Origin: an uncultured virus (IMG/VR IMGVR_UViG_3300030098_005070)
Lineage: Duplodnaviria > Heunggongvirae > Uroviricota > Caudoviricetes
DNA: 64,000 nucleotides
Virus record (IMG/VR): IMGVR_UViG_3300030098_005070
Direction: 5' to 3' (one strand)
In this document: in pieces, positions 19,771 to 64,000 of the stretch
How positions within the stretch are numbered: position 1 is the first letter of the stretch
How the letters are laid out: each line of letters opens with the position of its first letter
Position numbers and translations under genes: made by a program
Notes under the pieces: generated by a model
What the model saw: only the letters and a program-made list of their open reading frames with translations
Databases searched by the model: none
Told to the model about the DNA's origin: nothing

Positions 19771-19947
19771 ATGAATCAAGATGAAGAAATAAAATTAAAA
19801 TTAGGATTGCACAGATTATTGACAGCGATTACTCAAGGTGGGGCTTTGAGTGATATACAGCGTATGGCTGCTGTTATTGCTAACCAAGTAGAATGGCCTT
19901 ACGCATCGGAAGAAACCACAATAGAAGATACAGGTGAAGAGGAATGA
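19771..19947 (+). CDS. Hypothetical protein
   Basis: Short ORF filling the gap; ATGA overlap with chaperonin. Confidence 0.6.
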   Translation: MNQDEEIKLKLGLHRLLTAITQGGALSDIQRMAAVIANQVEWPYASEETTIEDTGEEE

Positions 19948-40400: not shown

Positions 40401-43400
40401 TTTGTTAACTGTATTCTACCATTAGTTTTTGGGAATCCTAGATAACCTAACAAATCTGTATGTGTTAAATCTTGAGTAGGTGTTGAATCATATGGGTCAG
40501 AAAGAACAGCAACTAATTTTTTAGGAGTATGGATATATTCTGAATTAGTTGTCATATGCACTGCTATATTTTTAGCAGGTACAGGATTCCAAAGACCGCC
40601 GTAATATTCTTTTTTAGTATCACTAGAAAAACCAGTTAATCGCCCAGTTGCATCCCCTGTCCCTACCATATGATGACCTAGAGTGAAACCACCCTGCCCT
40701 ACACCTCTATCATCGAAAAAGACACAAACTTCCTCATCAATGGATTCGGGTAGTTTTGTATTATCATTTTCAAACGGCGTACCCATTTGTGAATAAATAA
40801 ATCTAATTCTAGATTTTTGGCCTTTGTGATTTTCTAATTCTATTCCGTAAAGTTGTTTATTACCAATTTTTTCGTTGCTAATTTCTGAGGCAGGTACATA
40901 ACTACCATAACTAGTTAATGAAGAATTACCGTATCTTCTAGCAATTGTATTATCACCAGTTCTACCCATTCCCCAATTTCCTGCTAATGGCTTCCAACCC
41001 GGTACTCCCGCTTGTGTTAAACCGCCAAAATTAACTCTAGCAAAAGCGTGAGTCCCTGTTCTCAAACCTTCTGTGAAAGTTTGCTCTTTGGAACTTTCAA
41101 AAGATTCTGCATTTACAGAATTGAAACCTGAGCCACCAGTCGCATTCGATATTGCTCTCAAAACTGGGCTACTAATATTATCATCTCTAGGCGCAAAATC
41201 AGAATTTACAGATATTTGAGTATCATTTTCTTCATTAGTTAATTGATGAAGAGTTGTAATTGGGGCAAAAGGTCTTCCATTTTTATCTAAAGGCATAGGT
41301 GCAGGGTGCATATTTTCTGCATCTATTTCATCAGGCTGTCCCCAAAATGAGCGCCATCTACCACCATGACCTACAATAAATTCAGGTCTGTATGGTGATT
41401 GCCCTTTGCTGTTATCTAACCAAACACAAAAATTCCTTCCGCTAGCACCGGGAACTGTGCTGTGTATTACAATCGTAAAACCCTTATTTCCATCTGTATC
41501 TTGAACTTCTCTTCCAATATGTGCCCTAATGTAACCCATATGTGTGCCTCTATCTTTAGAGGCGAAAGCCCTGTTTTCATCCCACCAAGGCGCAGGGTCG
41601 TGAGCACTACCACCTTCTTGGAAACTAGACTTAGGAGCAGCGGCTTGGTTGATTTTTCTAATTACCTCATTAGCGGCACTTTGGATATTTGTTACACCCT
41701 CTGATTCTCCAACCTCACCCAAATCAATGGTTAATCTTCTTACAAAGTCCATTTGAGTCCAATGTGGTAAATGCTCAAGTCTACTTTCATCATGATTAGA
41801 TAAATCCAAAGTGGTATTTCTTACACCCTTTAGAGAAAGGAAGGCCGGAATTACTCTAGTTCCATCAGGTGTGTCGAAAAAGGTACTAGGTTCTCTTAAT
41901 GAGGCATTTGAAGTGTCTACTCTTAATTTCTTTAAAGCGACAACAAAAGAAGATTCAAAACTTCTAATTCTTGAAAATTCATGTTTTACAGTAGCGAAAA
42001 CCGATAGTAATGTTTCATCAGATGTTCTGCGCTGAATGCTATCTCCAACTGCGTAGTTTTTGTCTCCACCTGAAATTGAATATCCTAGATGCACATGGTG
42101 ACCATGAGCCTTTCCGTAAATTGAAGGAGAAGTAGCACCTGCACTAGATGTTGCTAAATTTGCTGGTAATGAGCCGCTTAACGGTGTTAAAACATCAGTT
42201 CCTATTCTATTTGCAATATCATGTGCATAAGCAGATTCAATGAATTTAGATTGTTGAGTTGCTCTCAAATATGGATTTTGTGAAGGGAAACCGTTTGCTA
42301 CATCTAATTGAGTTGTAGCCCAAGAAGGCCCACCACCAGTAAGAGTTGCTGTGTATTCTGCTAAATCAATTAAAGCACCATCTTTAACAAATTTGCGAGG
42401 CCATCCAATTTCTGCTGTTGCTGCTGAAGACTGAACTTGCATATGTATATCTTGGAAAGCGATAAACTCTCTATCATGACCTACATCATAAAGTAAAACT
42501 CTAGCATGACCTTCAGCAGCAAGATATGGGTCAAGATAGGCTATTGTTGGTGCTTCGGCAGCAGTAAGACCGAGAGCCTTGTAATTTTCTTCAATGGTCT
42601 TATTGACGTGTTGAACATAATTTCTTGCGGTTTCTAAACAATTTTCCCCAATCAAGAAATTTTCTAACGGTACACTATCTCTTGGTTCATCCGAAAGTGT
42701 ACCTGTCCCCCCAGTGAATCCTTTCCAAACCCGATTTTCGTTTAAAACACCTCTAGATTTAGAAAATAATCCCTCCATCGCATGAGGATTATTCAAAGTC
42801 ATGTTACACCAAATAGTGTCTCCATTCCTTAAGCCACCAGCAGCGTAAGGATAAACCCAAGAGCGATTTAAAATTGCATCAGGGTCTTCAACAAAGGCAT
42901 TACTGAATGAAACATATAATTGACATCCAGTGGCAGTAGCACCAGCATTTGCAGTTAAAGTGACTGTATAATCCGTACCGGGAGAACCTGTGAAATCTCT
43001 AGCACTAATTTCTGAAATTGTCCCAATAGGAGTTAGAGCAGTATAACCTTGAGTACCACCTGTAGCAAAAACATGGTCTCCTACACGTAAGTTTGACCCT
43101 AGTGTGTTAGAGGTTAGAGGTGTTGTTTCAGTCGAAGTGATAGTCACTGACGTGCTGCCAGCAGTAGAATTGATTCCCCAATCAGTCGCAATTGCACAAT
43201 ATGTTTCATATTCTTCATCAAGAATTGAATCTGCTGCAATTGCACTGATATTAGTTCTGTCGAAATTAATAATCGCTCTACTTCTTCTACTAAGTGTGAT
43301 TTGTTTCCCAGCAGCCAGCCATGACGGAACAGTAGTTCCGGTAGCATTGTAAAACCCTAAAGCAATTGTGTTTTCTGCAACATTCTGACTGTCTGCTGTT

Positions 43401-46400
43401 CTTATTCGACCGTAATAATGCAATCTACGGGTAGTACCATCATCATCTAGTTCTATTTCGTAAAGGAAATCTCCAACTGAAAAATTAACTGAAGTGAGAT
43501 AATCAAAACCAAAATCAGGGAATAATTCTAACTCTTCGGGTAATAAACTAACTAGAGCAATACCCATTCCATCGCTACCGTCATTATCTTCTACTACTCC
43601 TACAATACTTTGGATTTCACCAGTGGCTCTTTTTGGCTTAATACGGTCAGCGTGAGGGTTACTTTCAGGCCCAGCCTTGAATTCTACAGCGCTAACATAT
43701 TGTCTAAGGCCGTAATCTACATTCCCACCTTGTGTTTGAGCACTAGCAGCGTCATAGTAAAAATTACTTCTATTTTCATATCCTACGCTCTTTGTGAAAG
43801 GTTCATGTCCAATTGGTGCTAATGTTTCTTTAGGGATAGAGCCGCTCATAAAAACGGGTAATCCTATATCATATTCCTCTCTAAAAGCGTCAGTAGCCCC
43901 CCATTTATAGTCAGGAATTCTAAGATATCCATCTGTTGCTGGGTCATTGTCATACAAAGCCCAAGCACCACTTCTTAGGAAGATTCTTCTAAATCTAGGA
44001 ACGTTATCAATGGATTGGTACATATCAGTATAGGCTGTACCCGCAGCAGCGGTATTTGCCGCAGGGAATTGCGTATGGTTAGTGACGTATAATTTTAGAT
44101 AATTAGACAAAGAAGTATCAAACCTTTGAGTGATAATCGCATCATTTACAGATTCATCTTTAGAAATTGAATACGAATATGCTTCGTGTTTAGCCCTATC
44201 AGAATTAAATCCAGTACCCGGTCTTTTTCCAACTGGAGAAGGATTCCAAGAATGTGCAGTATAAGTGGCATCAATGTGAAATTTCAAAGAATTATCAGGA
44301 CCGGGATGTGTATGTGTCAGGATATTATCAAAAATTTGTTGTTCAAAAATAGGTATTTCTACCATAGCCCTTGTACTAGCATACTGTGTACCTAATTGAT
44401 AATCGTGATTTACACTACTTCCTGACTGGAACATTCGGTCGTTTACAGTCGTTCCATCTTCACTAAAAGAATCTGTACCGAAATGCGGGTCTGAACAAAG
44501 AACAAAAGAAACACTAGTTGCCGTTGAACTGAGCGTTACATTGGATGTTTTTCCAATACCTTTTAACCAATTTTCAAAAGAAGAGTAAGTTTTCCCTACT
44601 GCGTCTGTGTATTTTTGTACATTCACACTAGACTCAAGTGTATGGGTAAAAGTTCTAGTCGCTGTAGCGATACCTGTAGCGGCATTATTCATGGTCAAAG
44701 TTGTAGCAGAATCAATAGACTCAATGATTGTATTTGCTGGGATTTGAGAGCCACTAATACTCATACCTATTACTAAATTAGTAGTGTCAACGCTAGTTAG
44801 CGATGTAGACGATGCACTTGTTGACGATAAACTGTAAGAATCTGTGAAAGTAAAACTAGTACCGTTTTTAGAATCGTATAAAGCACTACTTCCATCTTCA
44901 AGATACACTCTTCCAATTTTAGCAAATCCATAAGTCCCCCAACTAGCCATATCTGTTGAGTTATTATTGATTGGAACTACATTCAAAGTTCCTACACTAC
45001 TAGCGTAAGAAACAGATTTGGTATTTACATGGAATGACCTTTGTGTAGAAAACGGATGTCTAGACAGAATACTAGGGTCATAGGTTGGGAGTATATCGCT
45101 ACCACCTTGCCCAAGCCCACCAAGAGTTACTGTAACCACTGGTGCATTCGGCTCAATTTCCTTTACCACATGAGAATCAGGGCTTCCTTTACCTGTTTTT
45201 GAAACATTTTGATTTGCAATGTTTTGATTTGCTCCGTAACAGGTGATTACTGTCTTTTTTACCCCATCGTCTTCTTTTTCATCAACAGAACTAATACGAG
45301 CCTTAGACATTAAGAAATACAAAGAAACTCTATTTGTTTCGTCAATATCTTCTGCTAAACTTCTCAAACGATACAATTGATTAATTCTTTCTCGATTTGA
45401 TGGTTGAATGAAAAATCGTAAATTTGCAGAGGCATTTCCGTCTATTGCTACATTATCTATAACATCAAACATTTCATGAATTTGGGTATGACTAGATGTT
45501 GTACCTAAATCGAATTCACCATTAGAAGGAGAACTAATTACAGTAGAAGGTTCTCTTCTTGAATAAGTTGTTTTATCGTTTAAATTTTTATTCTTAGGGG
45601 ATACTCTTTCTAAGAGAATACGATGGAATACGCTGTCATGGTCAGTAGTTGTAGTGTGACTTGCGGTAACTATCTGTGGGGGTGTATTAGGTTGAGCGGT
45701 AGCAACGGAAACTGGAGTATAGTTTGCAGGTGTAAAGGATTCATCTAATTCATCATCGGCTTCATAACCCTCACTTGTATCACCCACTAAATTATGCGAT
45801 TTTCCTACAATTGATACCCCATCTGATGTTGGGTTGGCTGCGACATCAATGTACCCACCCGGTGAATAAAGTGTACAATTTGCTATATCTCCATTAATAA
45901 TATCGAAAACAGTACTTCCCCCACCCACAGAAGTTATTCCGGCAGGAATTGTCTTTTCAACCATCAAATACGCATTTTCAGATTCATCCCCCATACTATC
46001 CCCATTCAAATCAATAGCGTTATAGTAAACTAAGACGGTAGATGTAAAACCTGTATAACTCGATAGTGCTGGGCAATTTAGTACTGCTATTCTAGATTCT
46101 TTACTTGGTCTGATATGGTAATCTCGTGTTTCGGTGTTTATTGTGCCAGCATCAGGAACCGGTCCTTTCAAAACAAAAGGTCTGTAATCAAAATTTAACC
46201 CACCAATACCAATAATTTCTCGACTACCTGTTGGTAATCCATTATTTACAATAGCGGCAATAGAAGAAGAATTTTTGAAATCTGTAATCCTGTAAGAACT
46301 AACATTACGATAAACATCAATTCTAGAATTAGGTAAAATTTGATTTTGAATGCCGGGTTGTGTTGTGTCATAATTAATTTGCACAATATCAGGGCTACCG

Positions 46401-47929
46401 TCTATTTGTTGGATAACTAACTCTTCATTAGCCTCCGGTAACATTCGCATAAACTCATGACCAGTAACGTGATTTAGCGTATGCCTACCATTATGCCCTA
46501 GCCTAAAACTATCATCAACTGAAGTAGGCCACGTTACAGCGAAAGGATTGTTTGTATCATCAACAGTATTAGCCATTCGACTAGAATAAATAATACCATG
46601 TTGTTCAAACTGCCCTTCATCTATAACCATTTGACCTGTTCTATCTATCATTTGTGTAGCGTAATGAAGTGGTTGATATGGATAACCTGAAGCACCATCA
46701 ATTAGTAAATCAGCACTAATAATTACGAAATGGTTGTCTACAGCACTTCTTGAATGTAAAACTGGTCTCAAACCGTTCCCAAGAGTAGAATTTGCAAAAT
46801 CTAAATGAATGCTGGAGACTATCATATACGGTGTAGTATGAATATCATTTATCGAATGTAATCTAACTCTTTCAGGTGGTGAAGTGTTTAACAGTTTAGT
46901 AGAATGGTCATACGCACCCGGATTTATTAACAAATTAAATGGCACATGGGGGATACTTCTTGTGTTAGTTGTACCCGGCGATGTAACTGCATCTGCTACC
47001 TTGTAATCTCCACTAGAATAAGTGCTGGATGTAAAATCAATAGTCCCGCTAGAGACTGTCTTTCCGGTTAATTCACTGGCAAGTGCAGCAGCATCGGAGT
47101 TATTTGAGAATAAAATTTTAGTTAATCCACTCACAGTAGAGGTCGAGGAATTAAAATTGTAAACTGTTGTGAATGGGGAAATAGGCTCTTCAAATCTATA
47201 CAAAGCAACTGTACCGGAATTTTGCAAAGGTGCACTTCTTTGCACCATCGAATCATCAAATTTTGTAGAAAGATGTAAAGATTCCATTATTCCCCTAAAT
47301 TCACCACCTTTACCACCGATATACATATGCTCTTCGCTATGTTGAATATTGTAATTGGGTTTGATGTCTTTTCTAGCAACTAACTCACCATTAATGTAAA
47401 TAACAGCATCTTTAGGTCTAAGAGCGGCCACAATATGAATTAGAGGTCTATGTTGAAGATTTAGAATAGAGCCAGTATCATAAGAAGAGTTGAATCTATT
47501 GTAAGGCTCGTGAGGTCCACCAAAATCAGGTGGAGGGTAAACCATACCATCATAACCGTTGGTTTCACTTTCCGCAGTTGAAAGTTTTACCACTTGCTTT
47601 CCATTTGGTCTTTCTAGATGAATTTGGAAAACACAAGGGCCGGGTGTATCTACTGTACCTATCTTTAAACTAAACTGGTTTTCTTTTTCGATTATAGTTC
47701 CACCACAATCCGGCATTACCCACGCTTCAATAGTTAAACTACTATTGAATCTATTACTCAAAACTGTGGATGTTTGCGAACCTTTAGGGTTACTAGCAAG
47801 AAAAGTAGAGGCAGTATTTCCATCAGGTGTAGTGTCACCTAATTTTGTATTTCTTCCTTGAGGGACAACTACGCTATCGCTCACTCCATCAAACAAAAGC
47901 CCATGAGAAGAAGTAGCGATAATCGGCAT
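31472..47929 (-). CDS. Giant (~5485 aa) virion/tail protein with N-terminal LamG/ConA-like domain
   Basis: Uninterrupted 16.4-kb ORF; FDGVSD...LTIEAWVMP...IYINGELV...YIGG...FRG.M...ALYRFEE LamG signature; S/T/G/N-rich beta domains. Confidence 0.85.
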   Translation of the reverse strand: MPIIATSSHGLLFDGVSDSVVVPQGRNTKLGDTTPDGNTASTFLASNPKGSQTSTVLSNRFNSSLTIEAWVMPDCGGTIIEKENQFSLKIGTVDTPGPCVFQIHLERPNGKQVVKLSTAESETNGYDGMVYPPPDFGGPHEPYNRFNSSYDTGSILNLQHRPLIHIVAALRPKDAVIYINGELVARKDIKPNYNIQHSEEHMYIGGKGGEFRGIMESLHLSTKFDDSMVQRSAPLQNSGTVALYRFEEPISPFTTVYNFNSSTSTVSGLTKILFSNNSDAAALASELTGKTVSSGTIDFTSSTYSSGDYKVADAVTSPGTTNTRSIPHVPFNLLINPGAYDHSTKLLNTSPPERVRLHSINDIHTTPYMIVSSIHLDFANSTLGNGLRPVLHSRSAVDNHFVIISADLLIDGASGYPYQPLHYATQMIDRTGQMVIDEGQFEQHGIIYSSRMANTVDDTNNPFAVTWPTSVDDSFRLGHNGRHTLNHVTGHEFMRMLPEANEELVIQQIDGSPDIVQINYDTTQPGIQNQILPNSRIDVYRNVSSYRITDFKNSSSIAAIVNNGLPTGSREIIGIGGLNFDYRPFVLKGPVPDAGTINTETRDYHIRPSKESRIAVLNCPALSSYTGFTSTVLVYYNAIDLNGDSMGDESENAYLMVEKTIPAGITSVGGGSTVFDIINGDIANCTLYSPGGYIDVAANPTSDGVSIVGKSHNLVGDTSEGYEADDELDESFTPANYTPVSVATAQPNTPPQIVTASHTTTTDHDSVFHRILLERVSPKNKNLNDKTTYSRREPSTVISSPSNGEFDLGTTSSHTQIHEMFDVIDNVAIDGNASANLRFFIQPSNRERINQLYRLRSLAEDIDETNRVSLYFLMSKARISSVDEKEDDGVKKTVITCYGANQNIANQNVSKTGKGSPDSHVVKEIEPNAPVVTVTLGGLGQGGSDILPTYDPSILSRHPFSTQRSFHVNTKSVSYASSVGTLNVVPINNNSTDMASWGTYGFAKIGRVYLEDGSSALYDSKNGTSFTFTDSYSLSSTSASSTSLTSVDTTNLVIGMSISGSQIPANTIIESIDSATTLTMNNAATGIATATRTFTHTLESSVNVQKYTDAVGKTYSSFENWLKGIGKTSNVTLSSTATSVSFVLCSDPHFGTDSFSEDGTTVNDRMFQSGSSVNHDYQLGTQYASTRAMVEIPIFEQQIFDNILTHTHPGPDNSLKFHIDATYTAHSWNPSPVGKRPGTGFNSDRAKHEAYSYSISKDESVNDAIITQRFDTSLSNYLKLYVTNHTQFPAANTAAAGTAYTDMYQSIDNVPRFRRIFLRSGAWALYDNDPATDGYLRIPDYKWGATDAFREEYDIGLPVFMSGSIPKETLAPIGHEPFTKSVGYENRSNFYYDAASAQTQGGNVDYGLRQYVSAVEFKAGPESNPHADRIKPKRATGEIQSIVGVVEDNDGSDGMGIALVSLLPEELELFPDFGFDYLTSVNFSVGDFLYEIELDDDGTTRRLHYYGRIRTADSQNVAENTIALGFYNATGTTVPSWLAAGKQITLSRRSRAIINFDRTNISAIAADSILDEEYETYCAIATDWGINSTAGSTSVTITSTETTPLTSNTLGSNLRVGDHVFATGGTQGYTALTPIGTISEISARDFTGSPGTDYTVTLTANAGATATGCQLYVSFSNAFVEDPDAILNRSWVYPYAAGGLRNGDTIWCNMTLNNPHAMEGLFSKSRGVLNENRVWKGFTGGTGTLSDEPRDSVPLENFLIGENCLETARNYVQHVNKTIEENYKALGLTAAEAPTIAYLDPYLAAEGHARVLLYDVGHDREFIAFQDIHMQVQSSAATAEIGWPRKFVKDGALIDLAEYTATLTGGGPSWATTQLDVANGFPSQNPYLRATQQSKFIESAYAHDIANRIGTDVLTPLSGSLPANLATSSAGATSPSIYGKAHGHHVHLGYSISGGDKNYAVGDSIQRRTSDETLLSVFATVKHEFSRIRSFESSFVVALKKLRVDTSNASLREPSTFFDTPDGTRVIPAFLSLKGVRNTTLDLSNHDESRLEHLPHWTQMDFVRRLTIDLGEVGESEGVTNIQSAANEVIRKINQAAAPKSSFQEGGSAHDPAPWWDENRAFASKDRGTHMGYIRAHIGREVQDTDGNKGFTIVIHSTVPGASGRNFCVWLDNSKGQSPYRPEFIVGHGGRWRSFWGQPDEIDAENMHPAPMPLDKNGRPFAPITTLHQLTNEENDTQISVNSDFAPRDDNISSPVLRAISNATGGSGFNSVNAESFESSKEQTFTEGLRTGTHAFARVNFGGLTQAGVPGWKPLAGNWGMGRTGDNTIARRYGNSSLTSYGSYVPASEISNEKIGNKQLYGIELENHKGQKSRIRFIYSQMGTPFENDNTKLPESIDEEVCVFFDDRGVGQGGFTLGHHMVGTGDATGRLTGFSSDTKKEYYGGLWNPVPAKNIAVHMTTNSEYIHTPKKLVAVLSDPYDSTPTQDLTHTDLLGYLGFPKTNGRIQLTNTSGSGDTGLTLYYENRTQNDFNGPHEFYGITSELSSDTSFSNYLISPSLNWTTLVTDELLCAVTAAAINAVDVNEESGVSFDCREMLAADGRTFGEWGIKADSIRIRAFNPNRKIIPISEYFTAEVHQDYGIRAAHLEYGEIEKSLENSAEWAFGTSRAVTDANLDAGRRVDCGYIPMTLLQIKSKSFGPNSNSNSPTLIDSLNEPVNNTFIDTWRKNLNGDNFTKTSGDHILPAIDNPSLFYQALNSSSNTLTHIYTATASLNNSIWGFLAPACKDTGTVTSVSEVKTVSFWPGARVTVEGHQGANINSYRTVLTTLIPIAGTQSIELTQAFREGDIDNASEGVISVKGDLDTTQQIDGIRSIGSVDSPLIVKFSGGRSSADHSVPVFFGGGFSGVVLDVNDGTMNDYSDFYTHPYASGPTGVAGIQNANEIVTSHAILDANAMMAFFPGTPLLNQHRGSLVPPAHNRDNILSPDLDSGSGTVNSDHPNSSPYSSNNTVLQKPSPLVLRFAHPTARYEDHANGTENKTTYIIFGPGQSFPFTQEIADSSAVNYNTQQPHPGRVITAGNGWSSVPEGTFLPNHIENDEGDYMPLSSTYHTARNRFHWRTQLNWETAAGKTIVGVLNQRPESGRMYGQLFVDGGSTGNNNDTKRSMPLRHNSLLGFGIATGADMVFHMDGGYHPGGNWMDNQITFNPPHPKSNTLLTPWGTSSQLHPTAYRVAGPITTKVLDYAAAEGTLVAADVDMEYIIVDATRCQNGNELAAVLGAAINSFPGAGALKAIGGTHMPSMGNAMRQDRYGWVELDTFESYNNSSAPNYLDFSSSTITTKTALEQIPACGWLKTDRSSSTTVPAWASYHSREVFEDSGTWKVRFYLAPNRVSNNAEFESYVTLANPSANPTISGTDTNLYVWSKAGVHRFNNQNGTSRDHMCQTHFSGLVDAIDRTRPIGAVGWHGERYSYLNSLKIGTEGYSAGLGAWHSELAFSPYGTSSGMLETLSHMPIVAPLARSPESLPPVDSIGSSLMTYINDPYDGSTGVTYTTNNLTYARKDTDDNAPDTLHAKPVHYDITSTLPADLAHPQGLFGHAFLVVASESEFALIAKKDRDGSIAVGDFLISKGVTSNKLQYAGTTKWDERFHSQDRFIAPAHAGPNIEALIVDDTALPSYTTDLAAYTFHTGSVTDLRLENANPDRAKTGDLITDLDFSLGSKNLESGITAERNVVPEFYTGTAYTSDSDYPDDFWKGDVHAFDLYKRTSALNFSTEHIVWKRMDGGNLSLPALNARGLGAVPWTTRVESDTAYTHGEKIYGNVRFSFETTNSAMFPLIQTQELQQPQLADKHREITGNVLVIPNEEIQFEQISVVDDSGETHIVEGGSPLGTVIRTFRVLDDRGVKGSSPSLANSGNKPSLMVSLPDPETIPGNILVRSGFDPIMAHQNETFGSGGVLQANLDETQLKHLFDSNDNGGELRLGPTYENLNWEHIDPVSNDSIKTGWVDATENAPLKTTYELHDRTLFFHVTKMGHSHTHRYPTTYTHSNGVENQVLTGSSWNSSTSVLTVNATINTRIYDADFGTKEVSDDRRFIRIYNPTTEESVVASYTGISGTTFTGVVGDVDFTDFIAAQTITDLKIVPSYYMPAGSARFYAAQRMRDHAEVSGASPDMAHTQYFTGVDSDTEAHTIYTKPVLTPMPYPRMGHHFVSATMPMLPGHWAHPAYQSVYRKHLAENSSVKGFRDRELFNEEKTPLSVSSDISSNVTDKMNPLEPEIFFSGMTATPSTPSDIHGGAFTLMFETSVKWDGYGVLGSRGNAGVINKAGGHTVVLEAAKKYSLQHHFPDPREVGAYQIVIQPNLFDSQIIGYHYYNSVQKLTSQQVHTVIGTEYVAAVGALVLYLDEATQADVRGCEVFINEIILDQEPDFGSQFNKIPPLSLFNPFGVEMSESPSFTRRAFPYSKMFSNATPSITLNIPWWSILHKVAPDDSSANGFRHLSQIKLDNYYEVSRSTFGNIGMQLTIAGYPSVYPDIYSHILQNTSLNPKATVVSSSGTTVTVDDASIFPETPYYGQKLEYVDSNGKRRTSDYTRRSGLQNGTVNVANQFTGVSATGFVSNIVDGETVIRLTRAYDTMPAIDIFTKIDKSIFASNLDRLKTGTKDTSNLHIPDAYLCMWHHNLGRPYTFYSDSSRTWNGDANDRAIDKQPYNSMPEHFETFRYQDAIYGMSLGPFDLKIKTPNSTKDGSVTVANSTHSQAGQDQASNYIMLNRFWPCGSRGGPHSSRPDVFVQAAASWIVPRAYGSDDLYRWYDNTTIGAAYSRTNGITKAKITTGQSYRLPFGYRISLRQAINKPRWGLIPTRAALEDAISGVSATSVGFKAGPLVQIETRTWNEADGGGSKTYPTTYVGIMERLTNFAGQLGTDKYEVQVRRSDGRRMTRPFGSPVRTLRNNNKVERDWWGDEEGKGITRLVEASQYYMVDWWGNTRGEAVRRAPVRGFGIRPAWDCGDAYEYDRTNGRTPYQRVWNNGKPIFNLKNVVNSSGEVSVTTNFTIPRFGGRLNTDNTNLSTILVDVFAPTHALRIGDMGGGRGVRYPTAFNEDLLTEISAPIHTTGMVLSHNTAEPTFGEGLLRPRNDVLQADEIPRGISARLEIAEDGLLKPEAVVSDRVEEISGSSPHKDAVSRSSPRIGIDAETIEGTEKSHIVINTEAHSLHTDRNVGQRTVLHGAYAIGSQSLGYADYTNFSFNNTNGANSGVLKFSHTSNMRPLGGDYILEARNFAGLFNDTGWGVTSLTGSNKTTNPYQDTTTYTADTRKNNDTDKTIQFLVRPVRVLDKNHVEIFRSKFSALKQSDGDYFQGSAGGKYGLFVYNTPSGRTATTNLPDTRAIPNANGPYMPIIYMSTGNDAVPSSMGANLLGTEVTNFNKDTLFNTVCRLVITENTLLHHRSDAPRRKNSELIDYNVKPRFSQSLHPKGHKADVDFGTSDHTGDAA

Positions 47930-47931
47930 AT

Positions 47932-49113
47932 TCAGGCCACCCAATCCGCAGGTAAGAATACCATATTGAATCCATAAACCGACTCACCAGCATCGTGGGT
48001 GATATCTATTTTCTTCATTATACCTTGAATCCCGGTATATTCATCTCCGGTATCAAAAGTAACTCCGGCAGGTAATGTGTTTGCGTCACTAGATTTTCCA
48101 AAAGCACCTTTACCAAGACCAGTAGGCATGAAAAAATTTCTAGCAACATAAGTATCTCCACCAGCACTTATCGTGCTATTATAGGGGATTTGAATACCGC
48201 TAATAAAATCCCCATCAGATTCTCCAGTTATTCCGCTTACAAGAGAAAGCCCACCACTAGCGATTGCGGCCACTAATATGCCTAAACTTTGACCCACAGC
48301 ATCTCCTAAAGAATCTATATCTGTACCGAATTCACGAGTAGAGTTATTCATAATCCCGTAAATATCTGCTACTTTATCTCCTGCACTCTTTTTTGTTCCG
48401 TCCACTCCACCTGAAAACGGCTCTATGTAAGAATCATTCCATGAATAATGCCTACTATCAACATCCCATTTTGGATAAGCAGTTTGATTCCCAAGCCTAC
48501 CGGCTGTTTTTTGAGTTATCAAAACAGCAGTACCAGTACGATTGGACTGTTCACTAGTTATAGTAGATGCTGTAAATTTTGCAGTAGCATCCGTATTTAT
48601 CCAAGATGTTACAGCAGTAGCGAATTGAGCGTCAGTAATATTAGTACCACCAGTAGTCTTTACTACAATAGTATTAGCAGTTCCTGAATCATAACCAACA
48701 CTAGTACCAGTAGTAAAAGCAAGCGAGTACACCGTACCATCAGTAGACTTGAGTTTTAAACGATTAGAAGAGTCTGCTAATAAAGCAGTTATGTAAGTAT
48801 TTGCAGCAGCACCAGTTGTTTTTGCCCAATTTCTTCTATCTCCATTTGGTGTATAATAAGAAGAAAAATCAATTAGTGCTGTTGCTGCGATAGCATCACT
48901 AGTTTTCCTGTCATCAGTAAAAACACCTTCAATAACAATAATTGAGCGATTTTTGTTTAAATCAATAGCATATCTTCTACCCCCACTAACAGGGAGAGGA
49001 GTCACATCCACATCTCTATCAACAGTAAGGGCTATCGAAGTGGCCTCTAATTCGATTAATTCCTTGTTATCTTTTACAAGGCGAATTGGAGTGCCATTTG
49101 CTTCAGCCATCAC
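47932..49113 (-). CDS. Putative distal-tail (Dit-like) protein with inserted domain
   Basis: Directly follows the tape-measure position; IDLN.....IVIEGVF N-terminus and GIQG......HDAGESVYGFNMVF C-terminus. Confidence 0.5.
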   Translation of the reverse strand: MMAEANGTPIRLVKDNKELIELEATSIALTVDRDVDVTPLPVSGGRRYAIDLNKNRSIIVIEGVFTDDRKTSDAIAATALIDFSSYYTPNGDRRNWAKTTGAAANTYITALLADSSNRLKLKSTDGTVYSLAFTTGTSVGYDSGTANTIVVKTTGGTNITDAQFATAVTSWINTDATAKFTASTITSEQSNRTGTAVLITQKTAGRLGNQTAYPKWDVDSRHYSWNDSYIEPFSGGVDGTKKSAGDKVADIYGIMNNSTREFGTDIDSLGDAVGQSLGILVAAIASGGLSLVSGITGESDGDFISGIQIPYNSTISAGGDTYVARNFFMPTGLGKGAFGKSSDANTLPAGVTFDTGDEYTGIQGIMKKIDITHDAGESVYGFNMVFLPADWVA

Positions 49114-57071: not shown

Positions 57072-58202
57072 TCACTGCAAATCCCTGACGCTTCCATGCG
57101 CCCCAAAGAACGTTGTCCAAATCTCACCCATAGTTCGGTATAGACCTTCCTGACCGAGACGGTTGATGGCGAATGGGTCGCCAGTTTCAATTCCACTCTC
57201 GTAATATTGGGTTGGGATTGCTGTACTGAAATATACATAATCTGTGTCTAGGAAATACATCCTGCTAATTCCGTCCTTGGTTACATCCTTGGATGGAATG
57301 ATTGGAACTCCGTTGTAGGTTGCTACAATGAATCCAGCCTCGATACCGGGTACACCCTTTACACCGTTGTAGGTCGGGGTGACTCTCTTTTCTTCCATAA
57401 AGCGCTGTTGGCTTTGTAGGAGTTGCTGAAGGCGCATTAGAGTGTCATATCCAGTTAGGATGACCTTCGGGTTGCCTCCTCGCTCCCATATGTTTTGGAA
57501 CAAAGTGTCAAGTTGGTCAAGACTTAGGTTTCTGTTAGTGCTTGAAGAATCTGCGTTGTCTTCAGCGAAAGCCCAAGTGTTAGAACTTCGGTCAATCGAG
57601 TAGATATCTTCGTCACCAGCATCGTAGTGAGTACCGGAAGCCATCTGATTGTTTCCAACAGTGATTCTGTCTAGAGACTCAAAGTTGTTACCTGCAACAG
57701 TTGATGCATCAGTTAGAAGCATCTTGTTGACCATCTCAGCGTGGTGCTTACCCATTTCTTCCTTCATGACTGAGCGGATATCGCCTAGTCCGTCATCCTT
57801 GTCAGCAAGGAAAATTGCTGTCTCGGACATATCGAAGGTGTGAGCGATGGTCTTCGGTTTTGCTGCTACGTGCTGGAAAGTTGGCTTTACAGTCTCAGGT
57901 AGTGTTGCGTTTTCTGCAACTCCACCGTGAAGTGCGCCACCGTTTGGCTTTCCAGTAATAACTCTCCAACCGGACCTGTCCCAAGGCCTCTTTGGTAGAA
58001 TGCTGAATGCGTTGAACTCTTGGTTCAATTGCGACCATACCTTGCGTCCGTAGATTGCTTGGTATGTTCCAGCGGTTGTGCTGAGCATAGGTGCATCAGC
58101 CTTTAGCAACTCACTACCGGAGTAGGAGTAGCCCATTGCGTTCCCAGCGCCATAGTAATAGCGCTCCATGTCAGTTATTGTGCGTACGTAATCTCTTGCC
58201 AT
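57072..58202 (-). CDS. Major capsid protein (HK97 fold)
   Basis: 376 aa after protease/scaffold; GGVAENATLPET, KPKTIAHTF, YNGVPIIPSKD..MYFLDTDY. Confidence 0.9.
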   Translation of the reverse strand: MARDYVRTITDMERYYYGAGNAMGYSYSGSELLKADAPMLSTTAGTYQAIYGRKVWSQLNQEFNAFSILPKRPWDRSGWRVITGKPNGGALHGGVAENATLPETVKPTFQHVAAKPKTIAHTFDMSETAIFLADKDDGLGDIRSVMKEEMGKHHAEMVNKMLLTDASTVAGNNFESLDRITVGNNQMASGTHYDAGDEDIYSIDRSSNTWAFAEDNADSSSTNRNLSLDQLDTLFQNIWERGGNPKVILTGYDTLMRLQQLLQSQQRFMEEKRVTPTYNGVKGVPGIEAGFIVATYNGVPIIPSKDVTKDGISRMYFLDTDYVYFSTAIPTQYYESGIETGDPFAINRLGQEGLYRTMGEIWTTFFGAHGSVRDLQ

Positions 58203-58220: not shown

Positions 58221-59591
58221 TCAGACACTCCTAAATGCGCTGTTTGCGAGGTTATGTACCTCATCCCAAGACATATTTCCAAGGTCTTCAGTGGATGGAA
58301 CGTCAATTGCCGGAACAGAGTTCTCGCTCTTTGCGATTGTTTCTCCACTCTCAGCAGGAGCAGTTAGACCATCAATTCGCTCGCTTAGAGCGCTGATAGC
58401 CTTTGTAATCTCATCTAGAGGGCCACGAGCATCAAACTCAAGAACTTCATTCTTGGTTATTTCCGCTTCTTTTTCTGTAGCGTATCGGTTTGCAAATTGC
58501 TCTTCTAGAGAGGAGCGTAGTTCAGTCTCAGCCATTGCAGCCTTGTAGACTTCGTATGCAGCCTCTACATCAGCAGTGCCTACCATGTCAGGAGTTAGGA
58601 AATCGCCCTTCTCCACTTTTCCGCTACCAGTAGTCTTACCAACAGCATTAGTGGATGGCTTTCCGCCTTCCTGAGCACGACCCTTTACCTGTCCGGCAAA
58701 GTAGTCAGCACCGTCACCGATTGCTTCAGGTGTTGAACCAAGGTTTGCCTTTTCTAAATCATCGAAGTGTGCTCTTGCACCCTCAATGTCTACTCCAGCA
58801 GACTTTAGAGTTCCTTCCATCCAGTCGAGGTACTCAGATGTTATTACATCCGAATACTCGTCTGACTTCTTGGACTCATCCTTGGACTCAGCCTCAGCAT
58901 CGTCTTTCTTATCCTCGTCTTTGCCTTTCTTGTCTTCCATGTGCTCTTTCAAGCCTTCGGGCATTTCGCCCTTTTCCATAGCGTCAAGGCGACCTTCAAG
59001 ACGGGATAACACGTCAGTCATCTGTGTCATCATATCATTTTCGTCAGTCATTTTACTTACTTCCTTGTTTTCTATATCGTGTTTTAGTATGCGAAAAGTG
59101 GCTTCAGGATTGATGCCACGCTCACAAATCGTGATTTCATGCAGTTCCAGTTTGCTGATTTCTTGGTAATCACCATGCTCAGCATCGGACTTTCGGACAC
59201 GCTTGAAAGCCTGACCTCCAATACTAAAACCACGAAGAGACCCCTTACGAATTTCTGCGGCGACTTCTTTCGCCTTTTCTATATCATCACGAAGAGCAAC
59301 TACAACGAACATTCCGACATCATCTACTTCGGACTTCCATAGTCTACCTTCACTGTCGGTGTAAGAAGGGATAACTTCACCGACTTGGATATTTGAGTGT
59401 GCTAGTTGGACGTTTCTGTATTTCGCATCGCCCATGTACTTTGCAAAAGCGTCTTTCAAGGCTTCTTTAGTGATTTTATCACCTTGCTTGTCAACGACTT
59501 CTACGCTTGCATAACCCGCTACGACGAGGTCTCCACCCTTCAATAGATGGATAGACTTCTCACCCGAACTTCTAAGCGGGGCTGAAAGCAT
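58221..59591 (-). CDS. Prohead protease fused to scaffolding region
   Basis: VAGYASVEVVDKQGD, QLAHS, GFSIGG, EITIC..GINPEA; charged coiled C-terminal half. Confidence 0.9.
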   Translation of the reverse strand: MLSAPLRSSGEKSIHLLKGGDLVVAGYASVEVVDKQGDKITKEALKDAFAKYMGDAKYRNVQLAHSNIQVGEVIPSYTDSEGRLWKSEVDDVGMFVVVALRDDIEKAKEVAAEIRKGSLRGFSIGGQAFKRVRKSDAEHGDYQEISKLELHEITICERGINPEATFRILKHDIENKEVSKMTDENDMMTQMTDVLSRLEGRLDAMEKGEMPEGLKEHMEDKKGKDEDKKDDAEAESKDESKKSDEYSDVITSEYLDWMEGTLKSAGVDIEGARAHFDDLEKANLGSTPEAIGDGADYFAGQVKGRAQEGGKPSTNAVGKTTGSGKVEKGDFLTPDMVGTADVEAAYEVYKAAMAETELRSSLEEQFANRYATEKEAEITKNEVLEFDARGPLDEITKAISALSERIDGLTAPAESGETIAKSENSVPAIDVPSTEDLGNMSWDEVHNLANSAFRSV

Positions 59592-59632: not shown

Positions 59633-62600
59633 TTAAGACAACTTTTGTTTTTTTTCTTTCAATCGCTTTCTTTCTGCTTTAGGATATGGCTCTTCAGGGT
59701 CTTCAGTAGACCGTTCTCGCATATCCCAATCAGGTACTGTTTGTTCAGAATTGAGAGTAGTCGGACCTCTAGGTGAAGAATTGGGTGTACCCACATCTAT
59801 ACCCATACCTTTAGCACCAGTTGTATTGAACATTTGCTCTTTTTCTATCAAATCCATAGCCCTTTCCATAACTTCTAAGGCTTTCTGCATTTTAGGTTTT
59901 AACAATCTAGATTCATCTTTAGGCTTTAAAATTCCAGCACTTTGTTCTTCTGAAATCTTTTTTCTATGTTCTGTTTCTTCTTCAGAAGGAATTGCCTCTT
60001 CAGTTTCTATAGGTAATTTTTCGACCTTTCCTTTCAACATTAAACTAGCAACTTGCCCCCAATATGGTTTGAGACTTTCACTTAATTCAATACTGTAATC
60101 ACCTAAACCAACATCAGATAGTACAGTTATAGGGCTATCTACCCAATAACCAAGAGATGATTTGTTTAAGGTGTAATATACTTCGTCTTGTGGAAGTGTA
60201 ATTTTTATTTTATCATCTTCAATATCTATGTCGTGTGGAACATGGATTGGTGGTAATGCTTTTGCGATGATAGACAAAGTTTCCATCGAAACCCCACCTT
60301 CTCCCTCACCTTCTCCTACTAAACGACTAATTTGAACATCGTAAACATCTCTATCATATCTAGAAACTCGACTAACTCCGCTAAATCTAACTCTAACAAC
60401 ATCTCCTTCTTCAAACGGCTTATTGCTAGTAACAGTCCCAACATCAACAAATGTTTCCCCTTCTTTCTCAACTGCTCTATTCCCTAGACCTTCTGAATCT
60501 ATTACAGGGCCAGCGCCTAATCTGTAAGTGTAAGGATTATTCCCTCTTCTATCCAAAACAACGAGATTCATATCTTTGTTACGCCTCAACAAAACCCACT
60601 TTGGATGCCTTTTCTCACCACGCATATAGGTACTCTTGCCATCTTTCAAAATCACAGCAGAATGCTCTTTGAGTAAAGTTTCTACTGCATCCTTCAGACC
60701 TTCATCGTCTGTAAATCTAGTATCATGGGGACCAGCAATTAACACTTTTTCGTGACTATCAAATTGACCTCTTAGAATTTTAAATCGCTCTCTAACAGTC
60801 ATTTCCATAACATCTGAACCATCATAATGAAGGATATCACTAATGTGTAAATTTTCTTTTGTTAGAACTCCATCTAATGTGCAATCTTTCTCACCTAAAT
60901 TTTTGACTCCACTTCTAGCCCAATCAGGAATTGCAGTTCTTGTGCCGCTTTCGTCATAAGCAGTAACCCTATTTCCCTTCTTTGTAAGTACTAATCTTTT
61001 ACCTTCGTAGTACTTAGAAATAGCCCAAGAGCCAGTAAATCCTCTTAATTCCTGTAACTGTTTTAATTTGAAAATTCTATGCATTGGTCTAATTGGGGGT
61101 ATCCAACTCGGCTCTTTATCACCTTTCAGCAAAGAATCAGGATTCAGTAATGCTACTGCGTATTCAGCAGGTTCACTTGCTAATAATCTAGCAGGGTCAT
61201 CTAAAATACTCATACTAGTTTGACCTAAAGCGGTTGTAGGAATTTCAACATTACTAAGAGGCTGCTGAAGTGGCTCTCCTTCAGTTAAAGCATATTGATT
61301 ACCATAATCTACTCCAAAAGCAGCAGTTACATGACTAGGGTTTGCTGGCCTAAGTGATTCAGTCTGATTTATAGAATGAAAAGTAGGAGTGCCTGTTTCA
61401 AAAGAAAAGCGACCTTGAGGAGTTACACTTACTCCACTTTTATGTGAAGCGCCGTAGATATTAGTAACCTTAGCGCCTTCTTCATTAAATGAAGTAATTG
61501 GTTGAACTACACTACCTTTGGCCCTTTCCCTTTCAGTTACATGGTCATCAGGTAACTGCGTCCCATCATAAAGAATTAAACCCCTAGAAGCATGAATAGC
61601 ATCACCATGTTGATGTTTTTTAGCGTATTTGTGCCCTAATGAACTAGTAAACGGTGTAGTTCCATCTTCATTCATATCCGCTTCAATTAATGATAACCCA
61701 TGTTCACCAAAACCAGCAGTATCTTTGATACCAGTAACTTTCTTTAAATTACTCAGTGGTGTTGATGTTTTGTATTCAAATGGTGTTTCTTTGTCTATTA
61801 GAGTAATAAGTTCTCCTACTTTTCCTTGAACAGCGGAAATCATTTCATCTAAATTATTAACATCAGCATCTATTCCTAACTCCTCTACCTTTCTTGCAAT
61901 CCTTCTTTTTGCTAATTCAGGATTTCTCTCTTTAGTGCTTTGAATTGATGTAAGTAACCCAATTAAACCCTGCATCTCTCTTTCAGTTGGTCTTAATTTA
62001 CCCATTCTTTCAAATTCAGGAGTGTCTCTTTTGCCTCTTTTTACTGCCTCTTTCATTCTATCTTCTATTGTAGTGTACTTGCTAAATTGACCATGATTAT
62101 CATAAATTTCAGAATCATAATCTTCTTCAATCCCTGACGCTTCATGGGCTATATTCTTTACAGATTGAATAAATCTCTCTTCACCATCAGGAATTGTTGA
62201 AAGTGTTTTATTCAAATGTTCTCTATGCTCAGAATCATTTGGGAAACCTAAATCTTCAATAAAATCATCAATAGAAGTTTTGTTAGTTACTATAAACCCA
62301 TCTCGCATTTTTTGTGATAAACCTCTTACATTTTCATGAACAGGTAAAGATGTTTTTTCTATTCCAAAATCTCTAGTAGTTGGTGATAGTCCCTCAACAC
62401 CCTCATAATATTCACTGGGTAGATGGTGTAAGGCTAAATTAGCATCAGCAAATAAAGCGGCCATATTTTGTTTGAATTTAGGATTATCTACACTCAAAAA
62501 ATCAGGTGGTAAAAATTCAGCAAGATGTTTTACCATATTGATGATAGTTAATGTATCATAATCTAATTTATCGTTGAACGGTCCTGACCTTATTTCTCTA

Positions 62601-64000
62601 CTCGTTTCAACTTTGTTTTCTAATTTAGCCTTATGGTCGCCATTTATTCTTGACATTATGTTCGCTTCGTGTAAAGCATTTCTACCTGAAATACTATCTC
62701 GGTATATTTGATTATCAAACGTTTTAGTATAAATCTCTTCAGCCCTTCTAGTTTCACCAGTATCATAATCGGTAACTAACATATCGGGGTCTAAAATTTC
62801 AGGTAAACCCATTGATATTTGCCCACCATAAGGCTGTCTGCTATCTTTATGTTTGCTATTCAGCCAATCGCTCACCATATGAGCAGTAGTACTTTTTCCA
62901 AATTTTTCAAGCGACTCTTGAGGTGTAAGTCCACTTAAAGCATCAATAAAATTAGGATGGGTTGATTCTGTTAAATTTGTATTTTGAAGTCTTTTAGACC
63001 TACTTAACTGTCTTTTAGGATGTTGAAGTGAGTGTAATGAAAGGGTAGAAGATTCAGGATGTGGGTGAATTAAGAATCCAAATAACCCTTCCAATCCGTC
63101 TTTTACTGAAAATCTAGTTCCATCTATATTAGCAAATAAACCCTCTTCTGTCCCATAAGATGGGTCACTCACCATAGTTGGACCAAGTAAAGCCTCAGCG
63201 AAAATATGCCTATCTATCCCAGCAGCCGGTCCTAAAAATGCAGTAGCAAAATCATTAGCAGGGTAAACTCCACCTAATTCTCTAACAGCATCTTGTATTT
63301 CAGGTGGTAAAGCGAGTAATTCCTTGTGAGGTTTATTACTACTAAAGAAACTAAAACCATCTTCTATTGAGCCTCTTTGAGCACCTATTTTTTGAAAATC
63401 TCCAATATTATCAAGAATTTCATTCATGTGTCTTGAATCTATCAGTGGTCCACTATGGTTTGGATAATGATGCTCACCGGCCTCAATTTCTTTTCCATTT
63501 TTATCAAACCCTAATGAATACAAAAGAGACTCTTTGCTATGTTCTTTTTTCTCAACCTCTTTTTCTTTTAATGTTGAAAACAAAGAGTCACCAAATCCTT
63601 CACCTAAATCTCTTTTTAATTTAGCAAAATCACTCTTTGTGAGTTTAGGGATATGACTTAAACTGCCTGTAAATTCTTCATCTAACCCTAAAGCGTCATG
63701 AATATTTTCTATGGCCCTTTCGACTAGAGGTGTGGTTTCTTCCCCTTCTTGAAAAAATATTTTTCCTTCATTATCAATATGTGCAGAATGTAAAGCCGCT
63801 AATAAAGAGGAGGATTCTTCATAAATTTCGGGTTGTAAGGAATGAAATAAATTAGGTTTTACGTTATTTGGTCCTGAATGAATAGTCGAATTTTCAACAT
63901 GACCTAACATATTCGTTGCTCTCATACGCATATTTCGCTTTAATCTACCCATAGGTAACTCAAAATTATCATCAAATTTTACAAATTGGTCTTTAGAATC
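59633..64000 (-). CDS. Large head-module protein (N-terminus outside window) with C-terminal inactive ATP-dependent ligase NTase+OB domains
   Basis: Frame open to the window edge. SKYYEGKR, LDGVL, ISDILHYDG, RERFKIL, VILKD..STY.RG, KWVLLR follow ligase motif order. Confidence 0.8.
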   Translation of the reverse strand, partial: DSKDQFVKFDDNFELPMGRLKRNMRMRATNMLGHVENSTIHSGPNNVKPNLFHSLQPEIYEESSSLLAALHSAHIDNEGKIFFQEGEETTPLVERAIENIHDALGLDEEFTGSLSHIPKLTKSDFAKLKRDLGEGFGDSLFSTLKEKEVEKKEHSKESLLYSLGFDKNGKEIEAGEHHYPNHSGPLIDSRHMNEILDNIGDFQKIGAQRGSIEDGFSFFSSNKPHKELLALPPEIQDAVRELGGVYPANDFATAFLGPAAGIDRHIFAEALLGPTMVSDPSYGTEEGLFANIDGTRFSVKDGLEGLFGFLIHPHPESSTLSLHSLQHPKRQLSRSKRLQNTNLTESTHPNFIDALSGLTPQESLEKFGKSTTAHMVSDWLNSKHKDSRQPYGGQISMGLPEILDPDMLVTDYDTGETRRAEEIYTKTFDNQIYRDSISGRNALHEANIMSRINGDHKAKLENKVETSREIRSGPFNDKLDYDTLTIINMVKHLAEFLPPDFLSVDNPKFKQNMAALFADANLALHHLPSEYYEGVEGLSPTTRDFGIEKTSLPVHENVRGLSQKMRDGFIVTNKTSIDDFIEDLGFPNDSEHREHLNKTLSTIPDGEERFIQSVKNIAHEASGIEEDYDSEIYDNHGQFSKYTTIEDRMKEAVKRGKRDTPEFERMGKLRPTEREMQGLIGLLTSIQSTKERNPELAKRRIARKVEELGIDADVNNLDEMISAVQGKVGELITLIDKETPFEYKTSTPLSNLKKVTGIKDTAGFGEHGLSLIEADMNEDGTTPFTSSLGHKYAKKHQHGDAIHASRGLILYDGTQLPDDHVTERERAKGSVVQPITSFNEEGAKVTNIYGASHKSGVSVTPQGRFSFETGTPTFHSINQTESLRPANPSHVTAAFGVDYGNQYALTEGEPLQQPLSNVEIPTTALGQTSMSILDDPARLLASEPAEYAVALLNPDSLLKGDKEPSWIPPIRPMHRIFKLKQLQELRGFTGSWAISKYYEGKRLVLTKKGNRVTAYDESGTRTAIPDWARSGVKNLGEKDCTLDGVLTKENLHISDILHYDGSDVMEMTVRERFKILRGQFDSHEKVLIAGPHDTRFTDDEGLKDAVETLLKEHSAVILKDGKSTYMRGEKRHPKWVLLRRNKDMNLVVLDRRGNNPYTYRLGAGPVIDSEGLGNRAVEKEGETFVDVGTVTSNKPFEEGDVVRVRFSGVSRVSRYDRDVYDVQISRLVGEGEGEGGVSMETLSIIAKALPPIHVPHDIDIEDDKIKITLPQDEVYYTLNKSSLGYWVDSPITVLSDVGLGDYSIELSESLKPYWGQVASLMLKGKVEKLPIETEEAIPSEEETEHRKKISEEQSAGILKPKDESRLLKPKMQKALEVMERAMDLIEKEQMFNTTGAKGMGIDVGTPNSSPRGPTTLNSEQTVPDWDMRERSTEDPEEPYPKAERKRLKEKKQKLS

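Follow-up and report, generated by a model that had tools for sequence, protein, structure and literature searches.

In the surface ocean, few archaeal viruses are as abundant as magroviruses. Philosof et al. (2017; PMC5434244) reported a second ATP-dependent DNA ligase in groups A and B of these viruses, which belongs to a distinct family and is 'embedded in the structural module'. Here, we examined a stretch of 64,000 nucleotides (the window) from an uncultured virus (IMG/VR record IMGVR_UViG_3300030098_005070), in which the slot of this ligase gene, directly upstream of the prohead protease as the initial annotation had it, is filled by an open reading frame (ORF) for a giant protein. The best explanation for this gene is that its product is a 1799 amino acid (aa) late protein of a magrovirus, the best conserved part of which is a pseudo-ligase.

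The giant and the magrovirus structural-module ligase have homologous adenylation and OB cores, and share PM[HY]RIF, GF[ST]G, NPKW or HPKW, Y.LGAGP and a helix with the sequence AL.K[SG]. Unlike the structural-module ligase, the giant lacks the catalytic residues, has a deletion of about 25 residues and has a Pfam score below the cut-off. Its module is also joined to an unrelated N-terminal region of about 1300 aa and is followed by a different tail. The part of the giant gene in the window extends from 59633 to 64000 on the minus strand (1455 codons, stop codon at 59633–59635) and is open at the window end. The ORF was thus correctly located initially, but it is truncated by the window edge, as the first 344 codons fall beyond it. 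The full-length match, P0002 (1799 aa, 100 % identical), maps to a near-identical virus record, G001. Residue numbers used below are those of the 1439-aa ORF that begins at a possible ATG in the window, and the numbering of P0002 is obtained by adding 360.

The evidence for a ligase that comes from sequence searches is real but weak on its own. The Pfam profile PF01068 matched the giant with an E value of 1.7e-5 and 25.1 bits, which is below the gathering cut-off of 26.2, and the match was limited to profile positions 118–201, the second half. One of eight relatives scanned passed this cut-off. The ligase of Archaeoglobus fulgidus (3gde) was matched at E 0.006. Nothing was matched when a full-length family profile was compared with the PDB sequences, or when the giant was compared with an annotated phage collection using tblastn. 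A profile built from 25 relatives found the Thermococcus sibiricus ligase (4eq5) in the PDB at E 2e-6 and also aligned the first half of the domain, placing 'PIRPMHRIF ... SKWYDGER' on the ligase sequence 'PIKPMLA ... EIKYDGAR'.

An AlphaFold model was made for residues 905–1320 from an alignment of 34 rows, and has a mean predicted local distance difference test score (pLDDT) of 77.8. In Foldseek, this model matched archaeal and eukaryotic ATP-dependent ligases, with archaeal enzymes at the top (best E 9.9e-15; 142 matches at E≤1e-3). When aligned with the Pyrococcus furiosus ligase (2cfm) using VIA-align, it gave a Z score of 22.5 and a root mean square deviation (rmsd) of 3.1 Å over 265 residues, with model residues 43–330 corresponding to ligase residues 217–553, a span that takes in the adenylation and OB domains together with the C-terminal helix, arranged as in the closed form. 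The Z scores for 4eq5 and 3gde were 20.9 and 20.0, respectively, and the nucleotidyltransferase (NTase) domain alone (model residues 44–221) gave Z scores of 18–19. The scores for PF01068, the family profile, Foldseek and VIA-align together put the likeness to ligases well above chance. As judged from the predicted structure, the presence of an NTase and OB region, proposed initially from the letters of the sequence, was confirmed, and aa 947–1234 are modelled as the adenylation and OB fold of an ATP-dependent DNA ligase. The ligase-like NTase domain comprises aa 947–1125 (60578–61114, minus strand) and the OB domain aa 1126–1214 (60311–60577, minus strand), with a GEGEGEG linker (60296–60316, minus strand) behind the OB domain. 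Relative to the three archaeal ligases, 2CFM, 4EQ5 and 3GDE (Z 20–22.5, rmsd 3.1–3.6, 265–267 residues), the module is 17–21 % identical, has no aligned N-terminal DNA-binding domain, and lacks the Lys nucleophile and the other catalytic residues.

All of the catalytic motifs are altered, at the positions where they had been noted, and alignment of homologs revealed that the losses are family-wide. Motif I reads YYEGKR (60995–61012), with Tyr981 at the position of the Lys nucleophile and with Gly984 and Arg986 retained. Motif III reads DGV (60866–60874), in which the Asp is retained and the ribose-binding Glu is replaced by Val, or by Ile in relatives. In motif IV, SAVILK (60644–60661), the Glu and Gly are lost, and 224 of 239 relatives have Arg in place of the Lys. 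Motif V is WVLLR (60584–60598), where Leu replaces the first Lys and Arg the second. All four lie on the minus strand. In the residue alignments, Tyr981 falls on the adenylated Lys, while 'HSAVILK' is matched with 'HEGVMIK' and 'WVLLR' with 'WLKVK'. In a census of 258 family proteins, 233 had a residue at the nucleophile site and in 221 of these it was not Lys. The residues found were W (135), M (26), F (20), Y (17), K (12), L (8), I (7) and, in a few cases, H, Q or R. In motif III, Ile (138) or Val (65; together 203 relatives) replaces the Glu, the Glu-Gly of motif IV is lost across the family, and the first Lys of motif V is L, V, I or M in 223 relatives. At the second Lys of motif V, R (137), S (22), T (18) and K (15) were found. 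The deletion of about 25 residues, defined relative to intact relatives, falls between motifs III and IIIa. That the module is a pseudo-enzyme is, taken alone, very probable.

The 12 proteins that have Lys at the catalytic position fall into two sets. Five (P0221, P0222, P0223, P0225 and P0235) have every motif intact. The other seven belong to a group of proteins that are about 1100 aa or fragmentary, and their remaining motifs are degenerate. We note that a distant third group (P0228, P0237, P0238, P0241 and P0247; about 1100–1160 aa) has no Pfam match, and some of its members have Lys at the catalytic position while the other motifs are degenerate. This group may be an intermediate, or may represent a second, independent decay.

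The five intact proteins, which we refer to as sister ligases, are 696–912 aa long and score 100–104 bits with PF01068. There are 248 IMG/VR relatives of the intact sister ligases, and every catalytic residue is present in 64 of 64 distinct sequences. They occupy the same slot, as all 24 sister loci longer than 15 kb have the order terminase, portal, about 3.5 kb of other ORFs, ligase, protease and capsid protein. In a BLASTP comparison, P0002 and P0222 are 27 % identical over 325 residues (E 2e-30), limited to the ligase core, and the family profile matched the intact head-module ligases at E 1e-36 to 1e-39. A 100-row tree was rooted with a pair of canonical replicative ligases that sister genomes encode. 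In it, 93 rows without the Lys lie on one side of a branch (Shimodaira–Hasegawa-like approximate likelihood ratio test (SH-aLRT) support 99, stem length 1.56) and five intact rows lie on the other (SH-aLRT 91). This split points to one loss, followed by drift at the nucleophile site. By sequence comparison, the pseudo-ligase derives from an intact head-module ligase, which is still found at this place in the genomes of sister magroviruses.

The family of giants is large. One search recovered 248 proteins at E≤1e-3, mostly 1800–2000 aa among the best 120 of the 248, and there are 562 related IMG/VR stretches. A profile search of 1.84 billion representatives gave 223 clusters (50 % identity) at E≤1e-3. 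Those examined among the best 150 of the 223 were giants, fragments of giants and some relatives of lesser length, with no ligase among them that stood out as free-standing. The family thus stands apart from ordinary ligases.

The module is bracketed by two Lys residues that are candidate sites for the prohead protease (a solidus marks the candidate cut). Site A, SLLK/G (61121–61135, minus strand), lies four residues before the start of the ligase fold, and its Lys943 is conserved in 100 % of 39 full-length giants. The residue two before this Lys (P3) is hydrophobic in 100 % and the residue after it (P1') is small in 74 %. Site B, IIAK/A, is at 60257–60271 on the minus strand, one base from where it was initially placed, and is contained in a conserved helix, S-x-E-[ST]-L-x-[LI]-[LMI]-[TA]-K/[SA] (60257–60289, minus strand; alignment and model). 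Site B is a candidate for protease cleavage, or else corresponds to the helix at the C-terminus of archaeal ligases, and is three residues inside the end of the structurally aligned fold (947–1234). Its Lys1231 is conserved in 100 % of the 39 giants and in 120 of 120 among the best 120 of 248 relatives. In the 39 giants, P4 and P3 are hydrophobic in 100 % and P1' is small in 95 %. A weaker candidate, site C, LMLK/G (60029–60043, minus strand), has Lys1307 in 81 of 120 and the Gly in 113 of 120. Sites A and C were located correctly from the outset, and conservation of the flanking Lys across homologs holds for Lys943 and Lys1231, which bracket the fold edges. Nine columns of the 39 full-length giants are Lys in at least 80 %, all in the C-terminal third, and only Lys943 and Lys1231 fit the pattern hydrophobic-hydrophobic-(x)-K/small.

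The protease and capsid protein encoded next to the giant have similar sites. The S78 prohead serine protease with a fused scaffold-like C-terminal half (58221–59591, minus strand; PF04586, E 7.8e-11) has an invariant [LI][LI]K/G at its N-terminus. The major capsid protein, which has the HK97 fold and is of the SU10_MCP family (57072–58202, minus strand; PF17236, PHROG E 6e-64), includes ELLK/A at aa 31–35 (58098–58112, minus strand). In the 46 capsid sequences, from both lineages, [LMIV][LMI]K[ASGQ] is found about 30–40 residues from the N-terminus. As this conserved K motif lies between linkers that vary in length and sequence, it is the probable maturation cleavage site. HK97 is the founding S78 protease system. 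The HK97 protease is reported to cut the capsid protein at K103/S104 (PMC10275583). Separately, 13 K-[AGS] pairs are conserved among 56 relatives of the protease/scaffold, and the scaffold half looks as if it were built for cutting to pieces.

No ORF combined a ligase with a protease among 313 ORFs with matches in 157 loci, and no longer protein containing the protease domain of the window was found. One longer protein with a sister protease was found, P0260 (1009 aa; query L084:10779–12017). It is a relative of the magrovirus protease (48 % identity, residues 715–874), with an ADP-ribosyltransferase-exoenzyme-like domain (PF03496, residues 138–254), not a ligase, ahead of the protease, and is a natural enzyme–protease fusion in this virus group.

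Taken together, we favour, with some reserve, a composite reading in which the giant is a packaged and cleaved pseudo-ligase that acts by binding. An intact ancestral ligase, in the slot between portal and prohead protease, underwent one loss of the catalytic Lys. The nucleophile position then drifted (W, M, F, Y, L, I, H, Q), with the fold scaffold and three basic pocket residues (the Arg of motif I, and the Lys of motifs IV and V as Arg) retained. The Arg residues retained at motifs I, IV and V are hints of phosphate or DNA contact. Such a pseudo-ligase would no longer be able to adenylate itself or seal DNA. The giant would be taken into the procapsid, where the S78 protease would cut after Lys943 and Lys1231, and perhaps Lys1307, to free a ligase-fold body of about 32 kDa that would act by binding, most probably to DNA or a head component, and not by catalysis. 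Packaging with cleavage, suggested by the gene position, the likeness of the sites to the capsid maturation site and the HK97 K103/S104 cut, is the tentative part, to which we give slightly less than an even chance.

There are precedents for parts of this scheme. T4 Alt and the T4 internal proteins are head proteins that are processed by the prohead protease and packaged or ejected. The candidate sites of the giant match the site in the virus's own capsid protein, as in protease-processed head proteins. Unlike the T4 type of protease, which cuts after Glu, the protease here is of the HK97/S78 type, which cuts after Lys. T4 gp2 and Mu N are head proteins that protect DNA ends. The analogy with them is functional only, and lies in what a packaged DNA-binding protein is proposed to do for a genome that is linear and terminally redundant. 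The m3G-cap-binding domain of snurportin-1 (PF21974) is a nucleotidyltransferase-superfamily fold without the catalytic Lys that has been reused for binding. However, it is eukaryotic and related to capping enzymes rather than ligases, and the match of one relative of the giant to PF21974 (E 0.074) is faint and carries no weight. Like the ejection proteins of SPN3US (PMC10052503), the giant is a large non-capsid protein encoded with the head genes.

Several observations weigh against the packaged, cleaved pseudo-ligase. The initial annotation saw a hydrophobic-x-K-[AGS] motif recurring through these proteins. Compared with 2000 shuffles, the motif is enriched in the protease/scaffold (11 versus 2.42 expected; none of the 2000 as high), but its number is at chance level in the giant (8 observed, shuffle mean 6.67) and in the capsid protein (1 versus 0.97 expected). 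The flanking sites are marked out by conservation and position, not by number. Site B lies in a predicted helix (model residues 319–328) that aligns with the C-terminal helix of archaeal ligases, and AL.K[SG] is equally conserved in the active sister enzymes (64 of 64). The conservation of site B may therefore be structural. P1' after Lys943 is small in just the 74 % given above, and the Lys of site C is likewise present in just 81 of 120. The isoelectric point of the module ranges from 4.9 to 9.0 across relatives, indicating no constant basic surface, and is uninformative as to DNA binding. The tree, with its long branches, came from a quick search. The viruses themselves are uncultured. In addition, a LAGLIDADG/HNH homing endonuclease gene also lies within the head module, so that gene position is no proof of packaging.

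The alternative that best survives is that the giant is neither a virion component nor cleaved, and has a late cytoplasmic role, such as holding DNA ends or nicks during packaging, acting as an assembly factor, or countering a host defence by binding or as a decoy. The position of the gene among the head genes would then reflect only where the ancestral ligase gene had been inserted. The homing endonuclease, between terminase and portal, is another non-structural gene so placed, the giant has no match to PHROG or Pfam virion families, and the helix at site B is accounted for by ligase architecture. Ligase folds can also serve counter-defence, as an active phage ligase has been reported to be an anti-Avs protein (preprint 10.1101/2025.06.06.658234). 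Against this, the protease gene is the immediate neighbour in 79 of 80 loci and likewise in 24 of 24 sister loci, in two lineages that share only 27 % identity in the module, the fold is edged on both sides by invariant Lys sites that resemble that of the capsid protein, and the fusion of a protease relative to an enzyme-like domain indicates that linkage of cargo to protease occurs in the group. We consider a purely cytoplasmic role unlikely, though it deserves to be kept in mind.

A stronger form of the packaging proposal seems more doubtful still. In it, the giant is a capsid-delivered polyprotein, and the freed, non-catalytic, ligase-shaped body rides on the ends or nicks of the packaged genome and enters the host, having replaced an ancestral packaged active ligase. 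If true, the body would shield the incoming DNA, keep it organised, or weaken a host defence that responds to DNA breaks, and the replacement would have taken place in a lineage that abandoned every ligase of its own.

It is highly improbable that the module is still an enzyme, with a non-canonical nucleophile or other chemistry. What speaks for an enzyme is that Gly984 (233/233), Arg986 (220), Asp1027 (221), Asp1039, Asp1104, Lys1118 and Trp1119 are nearly invariant in the family, and that no other ligase accompanies the degenerate module in its genomes. Ligase content was compared in five genomes only (the records behind L062, L071, L028, L084 and L123). The two complete sister genomes (G005 and G006) each have two ligases, a canonical one of about 516 aa and the head-module one. 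In G002, G003 and G004 (two of them 99 and 100 % complete and one 89 %), which encode the pseudo-ligase, only the degenerate module was found, with no other recognisable DNA or RNA ligase, whether NAD-dependent or matching an RNA-ligase family. Likewise, no second ligase was found in the window among the 36 ORFs of at least 120 aa scanned or in either half of a 5490-aa ORF. This absence counts against the pseudo-ligase, since a residual joining role can be suspected. However, no conserved nucleophile is left in the module. The Lys one residue before the nucleophile position, which was raised initially as a possible substitute, is present in only 100 of 233 relatives and is replaced by Ala throughout one clade (SAFYDG), and Lys1118 is also found in the active sister enzymes and in archaeal ligases, and so is not a new nucleophile. 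The ribose-binding Glu, the Glu-Gly of motif IV and the first Lys of motif V are all lost, and the catalytic Lys position varies among at least eight residue types.

That the module is a functionless relic carried by the giant, as loss of all catalytic motifs might imply, is scarcely credible, because it is the most conserved part of the protein, has 76 positions that are invariant across 25 diverse module sequences, is retained in the 562 IMG/VR stretches, is free of stops and frameshifts, and gives a confident fold model. In the full-length alignment, column identity is 0.55–0.8 for the module and C-terminal tail and 0.15–0.55 for the N-terminal 1300 aa, and identity to the window is 44–68 % for the module and 17–39 % for the N-terminal 1200 aa. 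The 25 module sequences are 46–95 % identical to one another. This pattern of sequence conservation points to strong purifying selection on the module. As the dead module is the best conserved part of the giant, it is a working pseudo-enzyme, not a product of decay.

The remainder of the giant is less readily described. The N-terminal region (window part 61136–64000, minus strand) is mostly helical and poorly conserved. A model of its 1200 aa is a mostly helical body with a pLDDT of 68.8. It gave a best Foldseek E value of 0.48 and, in a wide VIA-align search, a best Z score of 8.0 for a helical hairpin only, but is too large for a fair domain search. No Pfam or PHROG match was found for the N-terminal region, and there was no usable ESM Atlas match for residues 1–1270. 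A MuF domain (PF04233) was sought and gave no Pfam or PHROG match, the 1200-aa model being too large for a fair fold search. A simple fusion origin for this region is unsupported, as the ORFs upstream of the sister ligases have no similarity to it. Behind the ligase fold, alignment and model indicate a small conserved domain of about 70 aa (60044–60256, minus strand) with four strands and two helices in the model. It is followed by a probably disordered C-terminal tail of 131 aa (59636–60028, minus strand). The tail has short motifs (LLKP; G.GI; SP.GPT.L..E...PD[WYF]D) that are invariant within an otherwise variable, charged stretch, and these are possibly a docking signal. A complex prediction for the tail with the capsid protein and the scaffold half of the protease, run without controls, scored 0.00 and speaks neither for nor against docking. 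An aromatic-Asp motif that seemed common to the tails of the giant, the sister ligase and the protease was dropped, as the sequence contexts differ.

The giant sits between the portal and the S78 protease and is not itself the portal. In G001, the order upstream is large terminase, DUF6321 protein, LAGLIDADG/HNH endonuclease, portal (PF04860; PHROG portal match E 1e-64), three small ORFs and the giant, and the order giant, protease and major capsid protein is kept in 79 of 80 loci. The DUF6321 protein (101 aa; L002 11396–11701, plus strand) lies between the large terminase and the homing endonuclease, and the DUF6321 domain forms the end of several much longer phage proteins in PHROGs. The window also includes a magrovirus-like set of genes, for a family B DNA polymerase, a clamp-loader-like ATPase, a PD-(D/E)XK nuclease, an ERCC4 nuclease, a group II chaperonin and a DNA methylase, and by gene content the source genome looks like that of a magrovirus. 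The chaperonin is thermosome-like (19944–21443, plus strand; Cpn60_TCP1 E 1.5e-124) and lies at the end of the replication block. The 5490-aa product mentioned above is encoded by a single ORF (31472–47944, minus strand) in the tail part of the structural block. When scanned in two halves with Pfam, it had a weak Laminin_G_3/concanavalin-like match near the N-terminus (E 8e-5), below the cut-off.

That magroviruses have a ligase gene in the head module, and where it lies, is already known. No word beginning with 'inactiv' occurs in the text of Philosof et al. (2017; PMC5434244). In the passages on ligases examined in other magrovirus papers, no mention of a dead ligase was found, and looking for virion proteins that resemble an inactive ligase turned up nothing relevant among the texts reached. 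Within the literature searched, three points appear to be unreported, namely that the module is inactive in this lineage, that the loss took place once, and that Lys residues bracket the fold.

Since 2017, annotations have treated the head-module 'ligase' as an enzyme. As a lineage of 562 IMG/VR stretches and 223 clusters encodes a pseudo-enzyme in this position, that annotation should be corrected for it. The active and dead versions of one fold in one gene slot are a natural pair for comparison, and raise the question of why a ligase, active or not, is kept next to the capsid protease. The sites described here also suggest a candidate cleavage rule for the S78 proteases of these viruses, namely hydrophobic-hydrophobic-K/small. 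In this lineage of magroviruses, an enzyme has been turned into a non-enzymatic part, the role of which is probably in the virus head.

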